DNA of 64,000 nt. It comes from an uncultured delta proteobacterium. GTDB taxonomy: Bacteria; Desulfobacterota; Binatia; UBA9968. The stretch is taken from NCBI GenBank assembly GCA_963816145.1, contig CAWFJP010000015.1, positions 165,940 through 229,939 of the forward strand. Direction: 5' to 3'. This document shows, in pieces, positions 14,376 through 40,272 of this stretch (position 1 is its first letter; each line of letters starts with the position of its first letter). Made by a program: the position numbers and the translations under genes. Under the pieces are notes generated by a model that was not told where the DNA came from, did no database searches, and saw nothing but the letters and a program-made list of their open reading frames with translations.

Positions 14376-14466
14376 GCCTAACGGCCGCGACTCAGACGCC
14401 GCCGACCACTGCACGCGAACAAAGGTGCACGCTTCTTTGCGGTCGCTCTGAAGCCACCTGTTAAGT
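14376..14466 (-). repeat. attC site
   Basis: GCCTAAC ... GTTAAGT overlapping GFA stop. Confidence 0.75.
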
Positions 14467-15340: not shown

Positions 15341-15438
15341 GCCCAACGCGCCGGCTAAGCAGCGGCCCGCGCCGAACTGGCGAATCCGTTTCTGATCAGC
15401 CCCACACACGGGCCGACTGCTTCAGCCGGATGTTGGGC
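15341..15438 (-). repeat. attC site
   Basis: GCCCAAC...CCGGCTAAGCAG / CTGCTTCAGCCGG...GTTGGGC. Confidence 0.85.
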
Positions 15439-16344: not shown

Positions 16345-16431
16345 GCCCAACGCCATGCGGCTAAGCCGTGGCGAATCAGCGAGCCTGTAAGGCGAGCGTT
16401 TTCGACATCAGTCTTAAGCCGCGGGTTAGGC
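16345..16431 (-). repeat. attC site (family shared with 23343 and 25597)
   Basis: GCCCAACGCCATGCGGCTAAG...CTTAAGCCGCGGGTTAGGC. Confidence 0.85.
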
Positions 16432-18081: not shown

Positions 18082-19164
18082 TCAGACGCCTTTGATTTCG
18101 GAGTTTAATACCGAGCCTAAACTGTCGGCAGGGCTCCGTACTCCCCGTCCACCCCGATTTAATACGTGGGTATAAACCATCGTCGTACTGACATCCCTGT
18201 GACCCAATAGCTCTTGGACCGTCCGGATATCGTAGCCGTCTTCAAGCAGGTGAGTGGCAAAAGAATGGCGAAAAGTGTGCGGGCTTGCCGGTTTGGGTAT
18301 CCCCGCTTTCTGTGCAGCCTCTTTCACCGCTCTCTGTAACACAGACTCATGAAGATGATGCCGGCGTTTCTCGCCAGTAACGCGATCGGTGAAGTGGTGG
18401 GGCGCTGGGAATACCCACTGCCAGCCCCACTCTTTGCCGGCGTTCGGATACTTGCGATCGAGAGCGTTCGGCAATGCAACGCGACCCAGTCCTTTCTCGA
18501 TATCTTCCTGATGTTGACCTCGAACCGCTTCGATATGTCTGAATAGAGATTCTTTGATCGCTCTCGGCAGCATCGTGTGACGATCTTTATCGCCTTTGCC
18601 GGCTCGCACGACGATCTCGTTGCGGGAGAAATCGATATCCTTGACCCGCAGATGACAGCATTCCATCAGTCGCAAACCACCACCGTACAGAAGTATCGCC
18701 ATCAAACGTGGCGCCCCGCTCATCCGATCGATCACTTTTTTCACTTCCTCCTTCGTGAGCACGACCGGCAATCTCAGGGGCCGCTTCGCACGGACGACGC
18801 CGTCGATCAGTCCGATCTTTTTGTCCAGCACTTCTTTGTAAAGAAATAGAAGCGCGTTGAAGGCTTGGTTCTGTGTCGATGCACTAACGTGGCCGTCGCT
18901 CGCCAAGCTTGAAAGAAAGCTCGCGATCTCCGCCTCCGCCATTTCTTGTGGGTGCCGCTTGTCATGGAAAAAGATATAACGCTTGATCCAATGAACATAG
19001 GCTTTTTCGGTCTTATCGCTGTAGTGCCGCGTGCGGATCGCTTGCCTCACTTGGTCGATTAGTTTTGGTTTCTGACTCATTGGAAGCAGCTGAGAATTCA
19101 AGCCACCCTCGATTGCTGCCAGCGTGGGATTTATTGAACTCGGCGCATTGGTGGCGTTAATCAT
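18082..19164 (-). CDS. intI: Integron integrase A
   Basis: [33 protein letters not shown], integron-specific [23 protein letters not shown] insert, [17 protein letters not shown]. Confidence 0.97.
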
Positions 19165-19178
19165 GACATCCTCCTACG

Positions 19179-19478
19179 TCATCCCGCGTAACGCAGCGAT
19201 TGCTTCCCCACCGGCTGCCTCGCTATATTCTCCTCCCGCTTCCCCTCATACCGCGCCTGCAAATCGAGCCAGTAGCGCTCCGACATGCCGAAGTAATGCG
19301 CCAGTCGGTGCGCGATGTCGGCGTCGATGGCGCGCTGGCCCTGGACGATCTCGTACACCCGCCGCGTCGGCACACCGATGTCGCGGGCGAGATGCCAAAC
19401 GCTGATTCCTTTCGGAGCTAAAAACTCCTCCAATAAAACTCTACCTGGGTGCGTCTTCGAAAAGCGATTAGTGGTCAT
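19179..19478 (-). CDS. higA: HigA family antitoxin (no adjacent toxin)
   Basis: HPGRVLLEEFLAP...LARDIGVP...RLAHYFGMSERYWLDLQARY. Confidence 0.85.
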   Translation of the reverse strand: MTTNRFSKTHPGRVLLEEFLAPKGISVWHLARDIGVPTRRVYEIVQGQRAIDADIAHRLAHYFGMSERYWLDLQARYEGKREENIARQPVGKQSLRYAG

Positions 19479-19503: not shown

Positions 19504-19548
19504 GGTTCAATACGTTCAAATCGTTCAAGCCGTTCAAAACGTTTCGGA
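19504..19548. repeat. 9-bp tandem repeat array (CGTTCAAnn), left arm
   Basis: ggttcaata cgttcaaat cgttcaagc cgttcaaaa cgtttcgga. Confidence 0.9.
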
Positions 19549-19554
19549 TCGGAT

Positions 19555-19971
19555 TTAAGGTGTCGAACCTTTGGATTTGTTCGACGCACTATACTTTGGT
19601 CCCTTCAGTGAGCTGCGTTTTAGGTAGTCGATCAGGTTACTGATCATGATGGATAAGCGACGAAATGATTGGCTGGCATCGTCACAATCTTTCTGCGCGA
19701 CATAAGCCTGATCAAAAGCTACGTAAAGTTGTGAGCGCACCTCGCCACACGACGCTTTGGCAACATAAAGAAATTGAATAAACTCTTGGTTTCCGCCGCG
19801 TTCGAATCCTTCGGCGATATTGGACATGACCGACATTGACGCCCGGCGAATTTGATCCCGCAACGCGAAGTCCTTAGCGAACCCGGTGTCTTTGGTCATC
19901 TGGTAAATTGCCTTTGTAAGCAGTCGCGCATCTTTCCAAATCTCGAGGTCTTCAAAGTTTTTCACTTCCAT
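19555..19971 (-). CDS. Four helix bundle protein A (TIGR02436 / 23S rRNA IVP-like)
   Basis: [10 protein letters not shown]...[21 protein letters not shown]...[19 protein letters not shown]. Confidence 0.92.
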   Translation of the reverse strand: MEVKNFEDLEIWKDARLLTKAIYQMTKDTGFAKDFALRDQIRRASMSVMSNIAEGFERGGNQEFIQFLYVAKASCGEVRSQLYVAFDQAYVAQKDCDDASQSFRRLSIMISNLIDYLKRSSLKGPKYSASNKSKGSTP

Positions 19972-19984
19972 TGTCTCCCCCTCC

Positions 19985-20025
19985 TTAACGATTTGAACGT
20001 TTTGAACGGCTTGAACGATTGGAAC
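19985..20025. repeat. 9-bp tandem repeat array (TTGAACG), right arm, inverted
   Basis: 19996-20020 is the exact reverse complement of 19519-19543. Confidence 0.9.
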
Positions 20026-20032
20026 TCATTTT

Positions 20033-21577
20033 TCATTCGGTCATTCGACCGCGCCCTGTAAGAAACCACCGCCGTCTCACCCGGTCGTAATAGAGCCAAA
20101 GCAAATCGCCGCCGCGGGTTTCGGCGTAGTAGTATTCGCGCTGGATCTCGCGGTTCCACCAGCCGCCGGCGAAGACGTAGGGGCCGGTGAGTTTGTCGAT
20201 GTTGCCGTGCTTGGGGCCCAAGACGAGCCAGCCGTCTTCGTGGCTGTGATACGGACCGCCGGCAAGACGCTGCGGTTTTTGGCTCACGCGGCGGATCAAT
20301 GTTTTCGAATTGGCGAGGTTCAATTCGTTTAAATCGTTCAAACCGTTCAAAACGTTTTGGGGAAGACGAATACGAGTCACAGGCTCCCAGGTAAATCTCG
20401 CTTCGGGCAGATGGCCGTCGGTGAGCTTGGCCGAGACCACCGCGTCGTCGCCGAACTCGGCACGCAAACGCGCCAGCGCGCGGTTGGCGGCTTCGAGATC
20501 GCGCGTCGGTTTTTCGTTGAACAAACGCAACTGTTCGCTGGTCGCCGTGCAGGCTTCGGCGCTGAGTTCGATTTCGATGGCGCCGGCGGCGAGCCGAAGC
20601 GACTCCAGGCGCAGCCGGACGAGATCGAGAAGCTGCACCGCATCGAGGGTCGGCACCGCGGGACGCAGCGATTCTTTGAAACGGTCGCCGTGATCGATCA
20701 GCAACGACAACCAGAGAACGACCAGCGCCTGATGGCGCGCGGCGAGTGTGCTCAACAAGGGATGGAGCAACTGCTTGATCAAAAACAACAGCCGGGTGCT
20801 GTCGCTCTCGGCGTCGTCGAGAATTATCGTCTGGCGCGCCGGTTCCACTGGCGCGTTCGGCGCCAGCGGCGCCCACAGTTCGCCGGCAGCCATGCGGTGG
20901 AGACGATAAGCTTCCTTGCCGAAACGCTCGCGCAACCCGCCCGGCGGCAAGGACAACAGCGCGCCGACGGTGGTGATGCCGAGCTTGAATAGCGCATCGC
21001 GAAACTTGGGCTCGATGTTCAAACGGTTGAGCGGCACGGCGCCGGCCGCCTGCCGTTCTTCAGCGCCGTTGCGAAAGATGGTGATCCCCGCCTTGTTTTT
21101 GGCGATCGCATAGCTGCCGAAGCGGCTGAAACCGACGGCGAGATTGGCATTGAATCCCTGGGCTCCGAGATCTTGCTGTATAACGCTGGCCCACTGTTTG
21201 GGCGAAGCATAGAGACGCTGCAGACCGCTGCCGTTCAACCAAAAGACGCCGGGCTCCTGCGCCGCCGGCTCGACCTCGGGAGTAAAGCGCATCAGCCGCT
21301 CGGTCAATTCGCCCAGCGCTGTTTCACTCTCAGCCGCCGACACTTCGCCGGCGCGCAGCGTCGACGCGAGGGAGAACGCCGCGGCGTAGCGCAGACCGGG
21401 CAGCACCCCCTGCCGGCGCGCGCTTTCATTGACCCACAGCACTAAACCCTGCGGCTTGTCCTGCGTCACCACCGCCGCCGGATAACCGGCCCAGTCGGGA
21501 TGACGCCTGAGCAAGAGCTGCAATGGGAACGCCGGCAGATCAACACAGGCCAGCCGGCCCGCTATAGAGCTCTTCAT
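20033..21577 (-). CDS. imuB: ImuB, catalytically inactive Y-family polymerase-like protein
   Basis: RLACVDLPAFPLQ, ARRQGVLPG, FTPEVE, LARLRAEFG, HLPE, GPY..GGWW..EIQREYY; true end probably WFLQGAVE at 20041 (1-nt indel). Confidence 0.85.
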   Translation of the reverse strand: MKSSIAGRLACVDLPAFPLQLLLRRHPDWAGYPAAVVTQDKPQGLVLWVNESARRQGVLPGLRYAAAFSLASTLRAGEVSAAESETALGELTERLMRFTPEVEPAAQEPGVFWLNGSGLQRLYASPKQWASVIQQDLGAQGFNANLAVGFSRFGSYAIAKNKAGITIFRNGAEERQAAGAVPLNRLNIEPKFRDALFKLGITTVGALLSLPPGGLRERFGKEAYRLHRMAAGELWAPLAPNAPVEPARQTIILDDAESDSTRLLFLIKQLLHPLLSTLAARHQALVVLWLSLLIDHGDRFKESLRPAVPTLDAVQLLDLVRLRLESLRLAAGAIEIELSAEACTATSEQLRLFNEKPTRDLEAANRALARLRAEFGDDAVVSAKLTDGHLPEARFTWEPVTRIRLPQNVLNGLNDLNELNLANSKTLIRRVSQKPQRLAGGPYHSHEDGWLVLGPKHGNIDKLTGPYVFAGGWWNREIQREYYYAETRGGDLLWLYYDRVRRRWFLTGRGRMTE

Positions 21578-22136
21578 AATTCCAGGTCGGACCGCGCCGC
21601 TTGTCCTTGAGCACGCGCAAAGCGCACGCGAAGCGATTACCTTCGACGCGTTTTTTCTCGGCATGGGCGCGCAGGGAAACCAGCGAACCGAGAGAAAAAG
21701 CCCCGTGCGTTTTTTCCGTCAAACAAATCAGCGCCGTGTGATGACGATGCGCCAGGCCGGTCAAGCGCGTCTGCAGCGGCATCGGAATATCGGCAGCGCC
21801 GAGATCGAGCACAATGACGCCGAAACCGCCGGAGCGCAGGAGCTTTTCGCCGGCGCGGGCGATGCTGTCGGCGCGGGCTAAACGCACCACCACCAACGCC
21901 GCCAGATCGGTGCCGCCTTGAGCGACATCCGGCGGATAGAAAGAATGTTCCGCCAAAGTAATCCAACCCACCGGCTCGCCATGCGCCTGCGCCTCGCGAA
22001 TCAAAGTAAACGTCAGCGTCAACGCTGCTGAAGCCGCCGCTCCGGAGATCTCGACGAATCGCCCGGCGACCTCGTCAAGCGTCCACGGCGTCGCTACAGC
22101 AGCGGGACGAAGTCTTTGTGTGGAAGATAACGCCAT
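21540..22136 (-). CDS. imuA: ImuA / RecA-like protein
   Basis: GRFVEISG with degenerate Walker A, FYPPD, LLRSGGFGVIVLD; overlaps imuB start. Confidence 0.8.
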   Translation of the reverse strand: MALSSTQRLRPAAVATPWTLDEVAGRFVEISGAAASAALTLTFTLIREAQAHGEPVGWITLAEHSFYPPDVAQGGTDLAALVVVRLARADSIARAGEKLLRSGGFGVIVLDLGAADIPMPLQTRLTGLAHRHHTALICLTEKTHGAFSLGSLVSLRAHAEKKRVEGNRFACALRVLKDKRRGPTWNYEELYSGPAGLC

Positions 22137-25788: not shown

Positions 25789-26220
25789 ATGAACGATTGG
25801 TATCAACGCATGATGGCAACTCTGCAACTCAATGGGAAAGGAGAGCCCACGCAGAAAGCCTACACCCGCGCGGTCCGTATGCTTTGTGAGTTCTACGATA
25901 AAACCCCTGATCTGATCTCCGAGCCCGAGCTCCAAGAGTACTTCCTGCATCGCAAAAACGTCAACCGCTGGGTGCCCAAGACCATGCGCATCTGCTACGG
26001 CGGTATTCGCTTCTTCTACGTCCATGTGCTGGCCCGCGATTGGCACATCTTGTCGATCCTGCGCGCTCAGAACGAACACCGCCTGCCCGCCGTGCTGAGC
26101 GTCGAAGAAGTCGGTGGCATTTTGGCACACGTCAGAAACTCCCCCCACCACGTCTTCCTCTCGACCGTCTACTCCTGCGGACTGCGTCTCGACGAAGCCC
26201 GCCACCTCGAAGTCTCCGAA
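25789..26220 (+). pseudogene. Truncated tyrosine recombinase of the type paired with IS91-family transposases
   Basis: QRMMATLQLNG...TQKAYTRAV...LQEYFLH...IRFFY...LPAVLSVEEV...YSCGLRLDEA, then truncated; opposite strand to cassettes. Confidence 0.75.
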
Positions 26221-26266
26221 ACAAAAAATCAACCGGGTTTTTCAGCAGAATCATCCCTGGACCACG

Positions 26267-26563
26267 TCACGCCCGGGTGTTTTCCACGAGCGAGGCAATC
26301 TGCACGAACTCGACGCTAGGGCGCACACCGTAGAGACCGGCCACCTGCTCGAGTAACTGATCAGTGAAGAACGCTTTGGCCGCGTCCTCGGAATCCCAAA
26401 CGTAGAAGTTCGCGGCCTCACGCTTTCCGGAATTGAGCGTGAAGGCCTTTGAGCGCAGGCCCGGCATTCCTTCAAACCTTGCGCGTGCAGTCTCAGCGAT
26501 CTTCCGCACGGCTTGCTCGTCGAAATTGTCTCCGTAGCGAAACGTCACGAATACACCGATCAT
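26267..26563 (-). CDS. YdhR-like putative monooxygenase
   Basis: FEGMPGLRSKAF...NFYVWDSEDAAKAFF. Confidence 0.7.
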   Translation of the reverse strand: MIGVFVTFRYGDNFDEQAVRKIAETARARFEGMPGLRSKAFTLNSGKREAANFYVWDSEDAAKAFFTDQLLEQVAGLYGVRPSVEFVQIASLVENTRA

Positions 26564-29925: not shown

Positions 29926-30006
29926 ACCTAACGCTCAGGCTGAGAAGCCGCGGCCCGCGAGCGTCGCGAGCGGGTCCGAAGGTCTGTCTCAAGCCGATCG
30001 TTAGAC
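29926..30006 (-). repeat. attC site
   Basis: ACCTAAC...GGCTGAGA / TCTCAAGCC...GTTAGAC. Confidence 0.8.
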
Positions 30007-30607: not shown

Positions 30608-30665
30608 GTCTAACGCAGCGCTTAGGCGTCGCCCTTCGCGATCGCTCCGAAGCGGCTGGTTAGAC
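30608..30665 (-). repeat. attC site
   Basis: GTCTAAC ... GTTAGAC. Confidence 0.7.
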
Positions 30666-36244: not shown

Positions 36245-37297
36245 TCACAGCCCATCCGCGGGGCTGCGCACGCCTTGGCCGCCTCGATTCAGCACATGGG
36301 TGTAAATCATCGTGGTACTTACGTCGTTGTGGCCCAATAGTTCTTGAACTGTTCTGATATCGTAGCCATTCTCCAATAAGTGCGTGGCAAAGGAATGGCG
36401 CAACGTGTGGCAGCCGGCATGTTTGAAAACGCCGGCTTTCAGCCGCGCCTCTCTAAACGCACGTTGTAGTACAGATTCGTGGAGATGGTGTCTGCGCCGC
36501 TCGCCGGTAATGCGGTCTACGAAATGACTCGTTGCCGGGAAAACCCACTGCCATCCCCATTCTTTCCCGGCATTCGGATACTTCCGGTCAAGCGCGTTGG
36601 GTAACGAAATTCGACCTAGACTAGCTTTGAGGTCGGCTTCGTGTTGCGACTTGACAGTTCGAAGATGCTCAATGAGTGGATCTCGGACTGTAGTTGGCAA
36701 GGGCGTATGGCGATCTTTGTTCCCTTTGCCGGCGCGAACCAAGATTTCGTTTTGATAAAAATCAATATCCTTGACGCGCAACCGGCAGCACTCCATCAAG
36801 CGCAAGCCAGCACCATAAAGTAAGATCACCATCAAGCGCGGAACGCCGCTCATATGGTTAATGATTTCCTTAACTTCGTCTTTCGTCAGTACGACCGGCA
36901 GCCGCTGCGGCCGCCTTGCGCGAACAACGCCGTCAATGAGTCCGATTTTCTTGCCCAAGACTTGATCGTAAAGAAATAAGATCGCGTTGAAGGCTTGGTT
37001 CTGCGTAGAAGCACTAACGTGCCCGTCCATCGCAAGGCTTGAAAGGAATTGGCCGATCTCTGCCTCAGCCATTTCCATCGGATGCCGTTTATTATGGAAA
37101 AATATGAAGCGCTTGATCCAATGGACATAAGCTTTTTCGGTCTTACCGCTGTAATGCCGCGTGCGGATCGCTTCGCGGACTTGGTCGAGCAACTTGGGCT
37201 TTGGCACAATCGGCGGTGTCCGCGTTCCGCTTTGCCCGCCATCGATCACAGCCAACGGTTGGTTCCTGGCTCTGCTTGCGTTGACGGTTTCCATCAT
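36245..37297 (-). CDS. intI: Integron integrase B
   Basis: Same catalytic motifs and [23 protein letters not shown] insert; [18 protein letters not shown]. Confidence 0.97.
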
Positions 37298-37350
37298 TGA
37301 CCGTCCTCCTCGCACGGCATGCGGATAAGCTTCCGCCAAGACGGCATGGC

Positions 37351-37396
37351 ACCGTTCAAATAGTTCAAATTGTTCAAGTCGTTCAAAACGTTGCAG
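37351..37396. repeat. 9-bp tandem repeat array, left arm
   Basis: accgttcaaa tagttcaaat tgttcaagtc gttcaaaacg tt. Confidence 0.9.
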
Positions 37397-37403
37397 ATCG
37401 GAT

Positions 37404-37820
37404 TTAAGGTGTCGCGCTTTTTAATTGGTTCGATGCCGTATACTTTGGGCCTTTCAAGGAACTGCGCTTTAGGTAGTCGATCAGGTTGCTGATCATAATG
37501 GATAGGCGACGAAACGATTGGCTGGCGGCGTCACAATCTTTCTGCGCGACATAGGATTGATCCAGGGCTACGTAAAGGTGCGAGCGCACTTCCCCGCAGG
37601 AGGCTTTGGCAACATAGAGAAATTGAATAAACTCTTGGTTCCCGCCGCGTTCGAATCCTTCGGCGATGTTCGACATGATCGACACTGCGGCCCGCCGAAT
37701 TTGATCCCGCAACGCAAAGTCCTTGGCAAAGTCACCATCCTTCGTCATTTGATAAATCGCTTTCGTAAGCAGTCGCGCATCTTTCCAAATCTCAAGGTCT
37801 TCAAAATTCTTCACTTCCAT
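37404..37820 (-). CDS. Four helix bundle protein B
   Basis: About 14 of 138 aa differ from 19555..19971 (manual count). Confidence 0.92.
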
Positions 37821-37833
37821 CGTCTCCTCCTCT

Positions 37834-37883
37834 TTAACGACTTGAGCGTTTTGAACGGAGCGTAGCGGTTGAACAATTTGAAC
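37834..37883. repeat. 9-bp tandem repeat array, right arm (inverted)
   Basis: ttaacga cttgagcgtt ttgaacgg...ttgaacaatttgaac; starts 3 bp after the lexA stop. Confidence 0.85.
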
Positions 37884-37886
37884 TTC

Positions 37887-38495
37887 TTAGAATTTTCGGA
37901 GCAGCCCGACAATTTTTCCGGCGATGCGGAACTCGCCTTCGGCGACGACGATGGGCGCGTATTTGTCATTTTCCGCTTTGAGCGTGACCACGCCGTCTTT
38001 TTTGTAGAAGCGTTTGAGCGTCGCTTCACCGTCGATCAGAGCGCAGACGATCTCGCCGTTCTCCGCCGTGGCCTGCTGCTTGACGATCACCCGGTCGCCA
38101 TCCAGGATGCCGGCGCCGATCATACTGTCGCCTTGGACTTGGAGGGCGAACTGTTTACCGCTGCCCATGTCGCTGGGAATCGATAAGAACCCTTCGGTAT
38201 TTTCCTCGCTCAAAAACGGCTTGCCGGCGGGGACCCGGCCGACAATCGGCACTTCGTGGGTGACGTTGATGACCGCCTTGCCGAGAGCATTGACGACTTC
38301 GATGGCGCGCTTGCCGACCCGGCGGATATAGCCCTTTTTCTCCAGCGCTTTCAGATGATCGGAAACCCCGTTGGTCGAAGCGATCTTGAACTTCCGGCCG
38401 ATCTCAGGGATCGACGGCGCAAAGCCCTGCTCGCGAATACTCTTCAAGAGAAAATCGTAGATCGCCTTTTGCCGGTCGGTCAGGGGCGTGAGCAT
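37887..38495 (-). CDS. lexA: SOS repressor LexA
   Basis: LTDRQKAIYDF, PSIPEIG, HLKALEKKGYI, VPAG cleavage site, GDSMIGAGI, ATLKRF. Confidence 0.95.
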   Translation of the reverse strand: MLTPLTDRQKAIYDFLLKSIREQGFAPSIPEIGRKFKIASTNGVSDHLKALEKKGYIRRVGKRAIEVVNALGKAVINVTHEVPIVGRVPAGKPFLSEENTEGFLSIPSDMGSGKQFALQVQGDSMIGAGILDGDRVIVKQQATAENGEIVCALIDGEATLKRFYKKDGVVTLKAENDKYAPIVVAEGEFRIAGKIVGLLRKF

Positions 38496-38501
38496 GAAGG
38501 C

Positions 38502-38530
38502 TATATACTGAAAATAATTTCAGTAGTCAA
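38502..38530 (-). promoter_or_regulatory. lexA promoter overlapped by a palindromic operator
   Basis: TACTG-AAAATAATTT-CAGTA at 38506-38525; minus strand TTGACT-17 bp-TATATA. Confidence 0.7.
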
Positions 38531-38551: not shown

Positions 38552-38662
38552 GGTTCAAGCCGTTCAAAACGTTCAAATAGTTCGAGTCGTTAAAACTCAA
38601 CCCGGTTCAAACCGTTCGGAAACGATTTGAACGACTTGAACGTTTTGAACTATTTGAACGGT
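38552..38662. repeat. Empty palindromic 9-bp repeat array
   Basis: GTTCAA units followed by TTGAAC units with no ORF between. Confidence 0.9.
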
Positions 38663-38679
38663 CTAACGCGCGCCACGCG

Positions 38680-40272
38680 TTAGACCTTCTTGCGTTGATG
38701 CGACAGATAGTCGACGAGCATGTACTCGCCGAGGCGGTCGGGGCGGCTGTAGAAGGCGCGGCCTTTGTTGATGCGGGTGAGATCGTCGACGAAGCCGCGC
38801 AGCACCGGGCTGTCGTCGAGCATGAAGGTGTTGATGGTGATGCCCTTGCGGGTGATCCGTTCGGCTTCTTTCAAAGTTTCTTCGGCGGCGCGCTGGCTGA
38901 TGCCGCCGAAACTGAGCGGCCATTCGCAGTAAAGCCGTCCTTGCCGGCAGTAGGCCGTGGGCTGGCCGTCGGTGATGACGATGATCTGCTGATTGGCGCT
39001 CGGTTTGCGGTCGAGCATGGTCGAGGCCAGGTGCAAGCCGTCCTGCAAGTTTGTAAACGGATCGCCCATGTTCCAGGTCGCCTGGGGCAAGTCTTTGGCC
39101 TTGAGTTCGACGGCGCGGGTGAAGAAACCGACGATGCCGAAGTAGTCGCGCGGATAGAGCGCCCGCACCAGACTCTCCATCGCCAGGGCGACTTTTTTCG
39201 CCGCGGCGAAGCGCCCTTCCCAGCTCATCGACCAGCTCATGTCTAACAACAACACGGTGGCAGCCCGGGTATTGAGCTCGGTTTCGTAAACCGAAAAATC
39301 CCTGGGGCTGATCCGGACCGGCACGCCGCCGCCGCGCACCAGCGCGTTCTTCAAAGTCTGGATCATGTTGATGTGCAAGGGATCGCCCTGCACATAGGGC
39401 TTGTTGCTTTCAAGGATAAGTTCTTGGCTGCCGCGTTTGCTCGTCGAGTGGCGCCCCATGCCGTCGCGGCGCAATTGTTTATAAATATCCCGCAGGGCGA
39501 GTTGGCCGATGCGGCGCACGCCTTTGGGCGTCAACTCGAAGCGATCGCCGCTCTCCAGCACATAACCGCCCTCTTCGAGCAGCGACTGCATGCGCATGAT
39601 GCCCTCGAAATCCTGCTTGGGATCGCCGCCGAGAAGCTTTTCCAACAGATCCTTATCGACATCCTTCAACTGCATGCTCGACAGCTGCGACTCGAGCTTG
39701 CGCAGGTCTTCCATGCGCTCCATCATCTCCTGCGACTGCTGGAAGTCCATCGGCGTTTGGCCGCGGAACAAGCTGCCTTCCCGGCGCAGCCAGTTCTCGA
39801 GCTTGCGGATCTGTTCGAGCTGCATCACCAACTGCTCGAAATCTTTTTCAGCGCCGGAGTCTTCAAACCGGTAGGACGTGAGCTTGTCGATGGCGTCGCT
39901 AGTCTTGCCCGGCAGATCGTTCAAGAACTGTTTCTTTTCCTGAACATCTTGGCCCGATTGATCCATCTGTTCGAGCGTCTGCTGCTCTTGATCGACCACC
40001 GAGTCAAGCTTCTCCTGCACCTCGTCCATCGCCGATTGCAGCTTGTACTCGTCGTAGAGTTTGCGCATCTCGCGCGCCACTTGCGCCAACAGATCTTCGA
40101 TGCCCTTGGTCTGCTTCTCGCCCTGCTTGAGCCCCTTCTGCATCAGCCGGCGCATCGCCTGCTGCAGATCGCCCGTGTCGTTCATGTTGTCGTTCAACTG
40201 ATCGAACACCGACTCGGGATCGAGGGAATCTCCGCCGCTGGCGGTCCAGCGGCTATAGCGAATATGCACCAT
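38680..40272 (-). CDS. VWA domain-containing protein
   Basis: LLDMSWSM, TNLQDGL, VITDGQPTA MIDAS motifs. Confidence 0.9.
   Translation of the reverse strand: MVHIRYSRWTASGGDSLDPESVFDQLNDNMNDTGDLQQAMRRLMQKGLKQGEKQTKGIEDLLAQVAREMRKLYDEYKLQSAMDEVQEKLDSVVDQEQQTLEQMDQSGQDVQEKKQFLNDLPGKTSDAIDKLTSYRFEDSGAEKDFEQLVMQLEQIRKLENWLRREGSLFRGQTPMDFQQSQEMMERMEDLRKLESQLSSMQLKDVDKDLLEKLLGGDPKQDFEGIMRMQSLLEEGGYVLESGDRFELTPKGVRRIGQLALRDIYKQLRRDGMGRHSTSKRGSQELILESNKPYVQGDPLHINMIQTLKNALVRGGGVPVRISPRDFSVYETELNTRAATVLLLDMSWSMSWEGRFAAAKKVALAMESLVRALYPRDYFGIVGFFTRAVELKAKDLPQATWNMGDPFTNLQDGLHLASTMLDRKPSANQQIIVITDGQPTAYCRQGRLYCEWPLSFGGISQRAAEETLKEAERITRKGITINTFMLDDSPVLRGFVDDLTRINKGRAFYSRPDRLGEYMLVDYLSHQRKKV

Follow-up and report, generated by a model that had tools for sequence, protein, structure and literature searches.

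The DNA analysed here is a 64-kb stretch from the genome of an uncultured delta proteobacterium of the Binatia (C15:165940-229939, contig CAWFJP010000015.1; hereafter the window). It carries two small genes for four-helix-bundle proteins, each enclosed by inverted arrays of a tandemly repeated 9-nt word and each located behind a gene of an SOS operon. On balance, and with some reserve, we favour the reading that these two units, A and B, are two copies of a gene cassette resembling the intervening sequences (IVSs) of 23S rRNA that would live inside operons instead of rRNA, with processing by RNase III as the likeliest molecular event. Each unit would consist of a promoter-less gene with its own ribosome-binding site, placed in the loop of a long hairpin, with inverted arrays of some four GTTCMARHC copies as its arms. 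The arms would pair in the transcript and RNase III would cut the perfect duplex of 25 bp in unit A, in the manner of intervening sequences of 23S rRNA, and this cut would uncouple the cassette mRNA from its neighbours.

Both units are encoded on the minus strand and share one order in the sense of the gene: an upstream stop codon, 3-7 nt, (GTTCMAnnC)x4, a Shine-Dalgarno sequence, ATG, the open reading frame (ORF) with its stop codon, (GnnTKGAAC)x4 and the next gene, with a unit size of about 520 nt. In unit A, the 5' arm (19987-20025) comprises four GTTCMAnnC units and begins 7 nt past the stop codon of an imuB-like gene (20033-20035). Directly inside this arm lies the Shine-Dalgarno sequence AAGGAGG (19980-19986, read from the sequence), 8 nt 5' of the ATG of gene A (19555-19971), which encodes 138 amino acids (aa); the 3' arm (19505-19548), composed of four units and CGTTTCGGA, ends 26 nt ahead of the start of a higA-like gene (19478). 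Read on the plus strand, GTTCAA units recur at 9-nt steps over 19505-19540 (GTTCAAtacGTTCAAatcGTTCAAgccGTTCAAaacGTT) and TTGAAC units, likewise at 9-nt steps, over 19993-20025. A repeat search delimited the arms at 19509-19543 and 19996-20030 (35 nt, 91% complementary). Their perfect 25-nt core (19519-19543 vs 19996-20020), within an extended arm of 29/30, had been pointed out in a first-pass annotation of this DNA and is read directly in the sequence.

The same layout had been claimed for unit B, and it is present there with a clear left array and a degenerate, composite right arm. The 3' arm (37354-37392, with the left array at 37354-37386) contains four units and closely precedes the intI_B reading frame (ORF start 37339), and gene B (37404-37820) again encodes a four-helix-bundle protein of 138 aa. 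The 5' arm (37833-37884) consists of two array pieces (37833-37856 and 37869-37883, with perfect matches of 16 nt and 11 nt) around ...CCGCTACGCTCC... and begins 3 nt past the lexA stop codon (37887-37889). The earlier remark that both units start a few bases past a stop codon is therefore accurate, at distances of 7 nt (imuB-like) and 3 nt (lexA). The array pattern at the two units is not due to chance: the two-unit pattern GTTCAANNNGTTCAA has 15 matches in the window and 0 in each of 100 shuffles, and the three-unit pattern, with at most one mismatch, has 12 matches against 0.

Genes A and B match PF05635 with 116 and 117.3 bits (cut-off 33.8), and the match of gene A to TIGR02436 'four helix bundle protein' reaches 110.8 bits (cut-off 24), in agreement with the earlier assignment to the family of 23S rRNA IVS proteins. 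The two proteins are identical at 125/139 aligned positions (138 residues and the stop symbol; ~90%), and the nearest solved relative of gene A, by a sequence match only, is PDB 2gsc (E 1.8e-12), an entry with 5 chains. In RNA folding, the transcript of unit A closes with a long stem, and the genome encodes RNase III (rnc).

Repeat words beyond the two units

The window belongs to a 31-contig, 7.82-Mb metagenome-assembled genome (MAG; G000) with an estimated contamination of 6.7%, in which 6771 genes were called with a home-made codon-bias caller, at 83% coverage; stop-codon distances are mechanical, and starts and 'inside gene' calls are rough. Throughout this genome, packaging between inverted arms with a private word is general for PF05635 and GxxExxY (PF13366/TIGR04256) genes, as all eight genes of the first family and all five of the second are enclosed by inverted tandem-repeat arms. 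The six PF05635 genes other than A and B use the words AGGCAAT, AGGGGTAA, GAGAGTT, GAGATAGA-like, TTAGTGA/TTAGGGG and GGGTTTC. Arms were evaluated with an ungapped inverted-repeat score and controls, and the whole-flank RNA duplex energy was discarded as a poor statistic (control mean -60 kcal/mol). The 13 genes scored 10-27, with 12/13 at 14 or more, a level attained by only 2/400 control genes of similar size (99th percentile, 10). The cassette gene is co-oriented with its upstream gene in 12/13 cases and with its downstream gene in 10/13. Among 28 PF05635 loci in other genomes of the phylum, where the words are mostly heptamers, 13 lie above the 99th and 21 above the 95th percentile of a cross-paired control, and in five extra genomes of the genus the arm score is at least 13 at 12/15 PF05635 loci.

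A lenient-threshold Tandem Repeats Finder (TRF) scan of the genome returned 3330 arrays and 321 inverted pairs, in 210 of which the partners are separated by under 100 bp. Genes enclosed by pairs at a distance of 250-700 bp include those of PF05635, two with the 'GxxExxY' nuclease fold (PF13366/TIGR04256) and a single cupin gene; several GC-rich pairs of low similarity at this distance have no called gene inside. The cupin gene (PF07883, 129 aa), between inverted GTTCCAACC arrays at C5:220398-221058, is the sole enclosed small gene found outside PF05635/GxxExxY. The largest word family of the genome is CACGAAGGA, with 168 paired and 143 solo arrays by TRF count. Solo arrays of several words favour the G-rich strand (GTTCCA, 86 to 46; AGGCAA, 21 to 6; CGCAAAG, 37 to 13), and those of CACGAAG are without such a preference (80 to 63).

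A whole-genome scan for GTTCAA-type hexamers in 9-nt phase found 184 arrays of 3-5 words, with a modal length of four units (82/184), on 25 of the 31 contigs and mostly inside ordinary operons. Their 515 units yield the consensus GTTCMARHC, in which positions 1-6 are partly fixed by the array search itself, positions 7-8 vary and position 9 is C in 76%. The arrays are intergenic in 147/184 cases and fully inside a called gene in 33/184. Among the 57 solo intergenic arrays of at least three units that lie no more than 30 nt from a gene end, 46 start just past a same-strand stop codon, at a stop-to-array distance of 2-22 nt and with no conserved sequence in the stretch between. The 28 distinct convergent pairs always read GTTCAA...TTGAAC, and no close divergent pairs were found; 26 of the 28 are gene-less, with gaps of 19-226 bp, and gaps near 450 bp occur only in units A and B.

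Two arrays in the window are additional to those of the first-pass annotation. A gene-less hairpin of the same word family (38553-38659, minus strand) lies between the stop codon of a VWA gene and the lexA promoter and SOS box, and its RNA folds at -51 kcal/mol (z -6.1). The VWA stop codon itself is located inside a 27-nt GC-rich palindrome (GGTCTAACGCG...CGCGTTAGACC, 38660-38686), which stands directly ahead of the 5' array and is conserved across relatives with compensating changes. The second, a solo array of four units (20318-20358, plus strand), lies within the imuB-like frame and reads as NVLNGLNDLNELN (aa 436-449), an LNx tripeptide repeat; the 9-nt period preserves the reading frame, and imuB arrays are found at the equivalent place in relatives L007, L008, L009, L011 and L017. 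Elsewhere in the genome, almost all spacers in an operon of paralogous genes of ~345-365 aa (C8:27500-41200) contain a GTTCAA-type hairpin, one every ~1.06-1.2 kb. A sub-family of gene-less hairpins (e.g., C11:238341 and C8:35157-35256) shows an asymmetric core, in which one arm leads to CCCTCCTTC or CCCACCTCT and the other to CCGCTGCGCTCC, a motif that is also present in the upstream arm of unit B (37858-37869).

These data bear on the possibility that genes A and B are ordinary residents lying by coincidence between two independent intergenic arrays or terminators of the repetitive extragenic palindromic (REP) kind. Arrays are indeed common past stop codons even without a cassette, as the solo arrays illustrate, and hairpins separate ordinary paralogous genes in the contig C8 operon. 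Nevertheless, we consider coincidence very unlikely: enclosure of 13/13 PF05635 and GxxExxY genes stands against 2/400 controls at the same score, the only two convergent GTTCAA pairs with a gap above 230 bp both hold these genes, and the arms co-vary between orthologs, as described below.

The word is a property of the genus. The three-unit pattern was found in 24/24 other genus genomes, with 3 to 193 matches each (a tally that includes the unpublished G005), and for 16 genomes that belong to other families within the order it returned 0-1 matches apiece, as did a reversed control pattern. Orthologs of gene A (at least 60% identity) were detected in 15/24 genus genomes (again counting G005). 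The first-pass annotation had suggested testing the arrays for co-occurrence with PF05635 genes, and for the GTTCAA 9-mer the outcome was negative, the word being distributed independently: a gene is held by 2/184 arrays' loci (2/28 convergent pairs), and the word is used by 2/8 PF05635 genes. Both G004 (93 pattern matches) and G023 (167) are without a gene A ortholog of at least 60% identity, GTTCAA arms were found at 0/15 PF05635 loci examined in G002, G004, G007, G013 and G023, and G008 harbors a 64% ortholog yet only 3 pattern matches; these genomes are MAGs, 84-99% complete, so that an absence is not proof. For this particular word, the array is not tied to the PF05635 gene.

Orthologous sites, pairing tests and rival readings

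The LexA loci of 24 relatives (62-94% identity; designated by L numbers) were compared, 23 of which were evaluable for the post-lexA site. The usual order in these relatives is VWA gene, hairpin, lexA, cassette, imuA, imuB, cassette, higA and intI. A four-helix-bundle gene follows lexA in 7/23 evaluable loci (L001, L003, L006, L007, L008, L011 and L013), and gene-less GTTCAA-type hairpins or arrays occupy this site at no fewer than eight loci, i.e., at least L002, L004, L009, L012, L014, L015, L017 and L024. In L009, a full 9-mer hairpin with a 130-nt loop is present; in L015, an arm is followed by AGGAGG, ATG and 5 nt and then runs straight into the other arm, so that the site looks like the result of an internal deletion of the gene. 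The distant loci L010, L019 and L020 carry hairpins of other tandem words after lexA. At the post-imuB site, L009 and L011 are filled, L017 is filled in part, and L015 and L020 are empty. The comparison of filled and empty orthologous sites proposed earlier was thus positive, the post-lexA and post-imuB sites being filled, gene-less or reduced in different relatives. In the VWA-lexA spacer, the 5' array stands right past the stop codon in 16/16 genomes compared; the 3' arm is found in most of them, with other sequence in its place in L002, L006, L010 and L013.

The arms of the orthologous cassettes, which also have the Shine-Dalgarno sequence inside the 5' arm, match each other: both contain GTTCCA x4 in L006, GTTCGA in L017 and 7-nt periods in L013 and L008, and both contain the 9-nt GTTCAA word in the remaining cassettes compared. 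For the VWA-lexA hairpin, period (7, 8 or 9 nt) and word (CAA or CCA) agree between the arms in 11/11 genomes with both arms read, a count obtained by manual reading of the sequences and not by a scripted tally. At the level of sequence, these comparisons demonstrate that the two arms change word and period together.

The dN/dS ratio is 0.04 for gene A vs gene B (dS 0.89) and 0.04-0.08 against orthologs, which demonstrates strong purifying selection on the protein; on the basis of these values, the protein is functional and both copies are old. The ortholog of gene B in L001 is 95.7% identical, and in a tree of cassette proteins gene A groups with gene B and L001 (support 89/99). This tree is poorly resolved, with most forks open and a mis-started row of only 16 aa for the post-imuB gene of L011, and was used just for the close paralogy of A and B. 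The comparisons show that both cassette sites are old and vertically inherited, and that gene loss in some lineages left behind gene-less hairpins or single arms.

Several observations weigh against the IVS-like reading. Genes A and B are as old as their dS implies and without sign of recent movement. The cassettes are not in rRNA: the single 23S gene (C31:94633-97634), only ~77 nt longer than the 2925-position model, lies far away from all PF05635 matches, of which the closest one on C31 is located at 434758. Most arrays (127/184) are solo and unable to form a stem. In the 28 pairs, spacer complementarity is 0.624 within a hairpin vs 0.621 +/- 0.018 between hairpins, the perfect 25-mer of unit A being an exception to this non-complementarity. 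Among arm mismatches in 52/63 cassettes (11 were dropped for an arm score <12), those of G-U type in the sense RNA number 53 vs 48 in the reciprocal A-C class (p = 0.69), with 126 transversions; as an RNA stem under selection should show a G-U excess, selection for pairing is not visible. The persistence of arrays in G004 and G023 without a GTTCAA-armed gene argues against a dependence of the arrays on the enclosed protein. Finally, solo arrays track GC skew (71 to 19 for those of at least three units; 109 to 27, p = 7e-13, by a TRF-based count) independently of gene direction (38 to 8 with the upstream gene co-oriented, 18 to 5 with it opposite), and with only 58% of genes co-oriented with GC skew, this pattern points to a DNA-level process.

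The earlier suggestion that the arms fold into a stem with the ORF in its loop, like an intervening sequence, survives in part: the anatomy holds (35-nt arms, Shine-Dalgarno sequence in the loop), and selection for pairing was not supported by either of two tests. RNase III processing is plausible, albeit unsupported by the two pairing tests; by analogy with rRNA, arm pairing and cutting may happen and matter, a proposition to which we give slightly less than an even chance.

The replication polarity and the symmetric mismatches are best explained by a rival reading, in which the units are DNA-level mobile elements. The arms would be terminal arrays of binding words, comparable to the subterminal repeats of transposon ends, and would spread via single-stranded DNA at the replication fork, with gene-bearing units as autonomous elements, gene-less hairpins as counterparts of MITEs (miniature inverted-repeat transposable elements) and solo arrays as half-relics. 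Polarity with replication regardless of gene direction, symmetric mismatch classes and the lack of spacer co-variation are what would be expected if words, not pairs, matter; a private word per paralog, the resemblance of L015 to an internal gene deletion and the confinement of the word to the genus fit as well. In terms of insertion sequence or MITE features, inverted ends are present and a transposase is absent, and L015 represents a gene-less derivative with a Shine-Dalgarno-ATG remnant. However, the unit encodes no recombinase or transposase, none of the seven Y1-transposase genes of the genome is flanked by arrays, and no target-site duplication or clean empty site was seen in the 23 relatives' loci. 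Both sites are conserved across species with dS above 0.8-2, so that movement is rare at best, the same packaging is used by two unrelated protein folds, and placement 2-22 nt past stop codons involves no shared target sequence. As a complete account, we regard mobility as rather unlikely. Mobilisation of the type mediated by REP-associated tyrosine transposases (RAYTs) was considered and rejected, as the seven Y1_Tnp genes all lie away from arrays.

The conserved 7-nt core with free spacers suggests, within the IVS-like reading, that the word may be read by a factor, most plausibly the enclosed pentamer-type protein, which we put forward tentatively and consider rather unlikely. A distinct alternative would make this recognition the whole explanation: the arms would be site arrays bound by the enclosed four-helix-bundle protein, each word serving one subunit of an Avd-like pentamer, and the dispersed arrays would be its regulon or decoys. 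The unit would then form a nucleoprotein module that recognises itself, either to autoregulate or to protect its own transcript. In its favour, the 7-nt core is conserved, with the variable positions 7-8 and the prevalent C at position 9 noted above (positions 1-6 being partly search-fixed), the cores are intact between units A and B despite a dS of 0.89, and the arrays contain 3-5 words, with a mode of 4, next to five chains in the 2gsc entry. Avd is described as a positively charged RNA-binding pentamer (bioRxiv 10.1101/2023.10.23.563531). In addition, each paralog has one word and the closest paralogs, A and B, share theirs, and a 7-9 nt period is mismatched to the helical repeat of duplex DNA and may be better suited to single strands. 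These points are countered by G004 and G023, with 93 and 167 matches and no GTTCAA-armed gene among the 15 PF05635 loci of five genomes, by G008 with its 64% ortholog and only 3 matches (in incomplete MAGs, at 92-99% completeness), and by the GxxExxY genes, which have a different fold and the same kind of arms; moreover, linkage alone would make word and protein diverge together. We hold this alternative to be improbable. The readings considered here are not mutually exclusive.

The SOS operon and the adjacent integrons

Units A and B are co-oriented with their upstream SOS genes, which are an imuB-like Y-family polymerase homolog (20033-21664) for unit A and lexA (37887-38495) for unit B. A HigA-type antitoxin gene (19179-19478) stands between unit A and its intI. 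As the first-pass annotation had it, both units precede an intI, and each of the two recombinases that follow is a genuine integron integrase by its match to TIGR02249 (468 and 466 bits; cut-off 265).

Neither within nor ahead of unit A or B did a search detect a sigma-70-like promoter on the minus strand. Ahead of lexA, a perfect palindrome, TACTGAAATTATTTTCAGTA (38506-38525), overlaps a TTGACT...TATA promoter-like stretch; it is kept in the spacers of 16/16 relatives, is the sole SOS-box match in the window and is probably the SOS box of this group, of the CTG-N10-CAG type. The GTTC words were also considered as LexA boxes and rejected, given this palindrome and the placement of the arrays mostly behind stop codons. 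As no unit promoter was detected and the only SOS box in the window lies before lexA, the simplest reading is that each unit would be transcribed by read-through from its host operon, unit B from the LexA-controlled lexA promoter, and we consider this quite probable.

Contigs of three metatranscriptome runs span the 3' half of imuB (20382-21061), with gene A and the junctions outside their cover. Joints across 19528-19993 in public runs were rejected as alleles of the unit, because their sides of 20-30 nt have foreign letters between them and derive from other community hairpins. A joint from 19546 to 20382 in the RNA runs was likewise set aside as a strain variant of the array inside imuB, and nothing in these runs bears on co-transcription, cleavage or empty alleles.

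The proximity of the integrases raises the question of whether the units are integron cassettes whose arms serve the neighbouring IntI as attC or attI sites. In favour of this, a true integron integrase stands downstream of each unit, and an attC normally sits as a hairpin right past a stop codon. However, classical attC sites (RYYYAAC ... GTTRRRY ends), unlike the arms, are found downstream of both intI genes, the ORF here is inside the hairpin and not before it, the same arrays occur on 25/31 contigs, mostly in ordinary operons, and no GTTCAA array is present in the integron cassette region at 22-36 kb. This explanation is thus extremely improbable. As attC sites, the arms were rejected because they begin with GTTCAA, end with TTGAAC and enclose an ORF, classical attC being located elsewhere in the window.

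The window contains two chromosomal integrons (14376-37339), with intI_A at 18082-19164 and intI_B at 36245-37339, each co-oriented with its cassettes. The small co-oriented genes downstream of the two integrases encode antitoxins, DUF3303 (x2), RibD_C (x2), PNPOx (x2) and a methyltransferase piece, and classical attC sites are found at 30608-30665, 29926-30006, 16345-16431, 15341-15438 and 14376-14466. A third integrase piece (25789-26319, plus strand), with only the N-terminal SAM-like domain (PF13495, E 4e-19), lies on the opposite strand within the cassette region. Unit B and imuA are separated in this genome by intI_B together with ~14 kb of small genes; since lexA, imuA and imuB are contiguous in relatives, intI_B with its ~14-kb array appears to have been inserted into the SOS operon here. 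A search of the whole window against Rfam at gathering thresholds gave 0 matches.

Known relatives and significance

By analogy of architecture, the closest described relative of the cassettes is the ORF-bearing 23S rRNA intervening sequence. The helix-45 IVS of Coxiella burnetii has 428 nt (428-444), with an S23p ORF and a stem of 28 bp, and RNase III cleaves it in vitro (PMC4990558); ORF-bearing 23S IVSs also occur in Leptospira, as cited in PMC4990558. The two have in common a PF05635-type ORF in the loop of a terminal-inverted-repeat stem and a sporadic distribution, and sizes are comparable in kind, with ~520 nt and a stem of 25 bp perfect (35 nt at 91%) here versus 428-444 nt and 28 bp in Coxiella. 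In contrast to 23S IVSs, the present units lie between protein-coding SOS-operon genes and their arms are tandem 9-mers of a dispersed family, and whereas the Coxiella ORF is described as decaying (PMC4990558), the ORF here is under strong purifying selection. Cutting by RNase III was shown for the rRNA version and would apply to the present units by analogy.

The gene-less forms resemble two other described repeats. In Geobacter metallireducens, 'putative global regulator binding sites' of classes 1-3 are built from 3-5 units of 7-9 nt in tandem and form opposite-strand pairs (Aklujkar et al. 2009, PMC2700814); in Xanthomonas, GGGAATC heptamers form ~186 arrays with 70-75 convergent pairs (Rehm et al. 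2015, PMC4692102). Shared with these are 3-5 units of 7-9 nt, opposite-strand pairs at variable distance, solo and convergent forms and dozens to hundreds of intergenic copies; the word differs, as do the replication polarity and the post-stop placement. No link of such repeats to four-helix-bundle or GxxExxY genes is made in the passages of PMC2700814 and PMC4692102 that were consulted, and the terms 'intervening' and 'S23' have 0 occurrences in the text of PMC4692102.

Like REPs, bacterial interspersed mosaic elements (BIMEs) and REP doublets forming hairpins (REPINs), the present repeats occur as dispersed intergenic singlets and inverted doublets, often in the 3' untranslated spacers of operons, and can flank a gene. 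Unlike in the REP/BIME/REPIN-RAYT systems, the arm is a non-palindromic tandem array and not an imperfect palindrome, and the enclosed gene is not a Y1 transposase. The relation of the protein family to Avd, an accessory protein of diversity-generating retroelements (DGRs), which the first-pass annotation had invoked, is in print: Avd, which binds nucleic acid, folds as a related four-helix-bundle pentamer (bioRxiv 10.1101/2023.10.23.563531). Unlike in DGRs, no reverse transcriptase and no template or variable repeats were found beside the units, whose neighbours are lexA and the imuB-like, HigA-like and IntI genes.

Bacterial tandem repeats of 7-9 nt and rRNA intervening sequences are long-standing curiosities, and PF05635 and GxxExxY are large families for which we know of no established function. 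In the literature within our scope, which left aside supplements and subscription journals, no paper described tandem-repeat arms around PF05635 or GxxExxY genes. The locus joins these families, short tandem repeats and rRNA intervening sequences within one genome. It contributes a word of 9 nt, a series of three states across orthologous sites that were tracked, arm co-variation and the replication polarity of solo arms, as well as the non-co-occurrence of word and gene, the negative pairing tests and a setting of SOS operon and integron. Furthermore, it provides comparative material in which one word family is seen in three states and two cassette sites can be followed through about two dozen species, and the replication-strand polarity of solo arrays hints at how copies arise. 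The cassettes sit in a lexA-imuA-imuB SOS operon with an integron integrase at its end, a position that may link their expression to DNA damage.

More speculatively, gene cassettes, gene-less hairpins and solo arms could all belong to one undescribed element class, in which a small pentameric four-helix-bundle protein, or a GxxExxY nuclease in sister cassettes, would read its private 7-9 nt word in single-stranded nucleic acid, one word per subunit, and copies would be laid down at replication forks behind stop codons. We think this unlikely as matters stand; if true, however, a single element class would account for the intervening sequences of rRNA, for why heptamer-type repeats are in excess in bacteria and for two large families of proteins that lack a known function.

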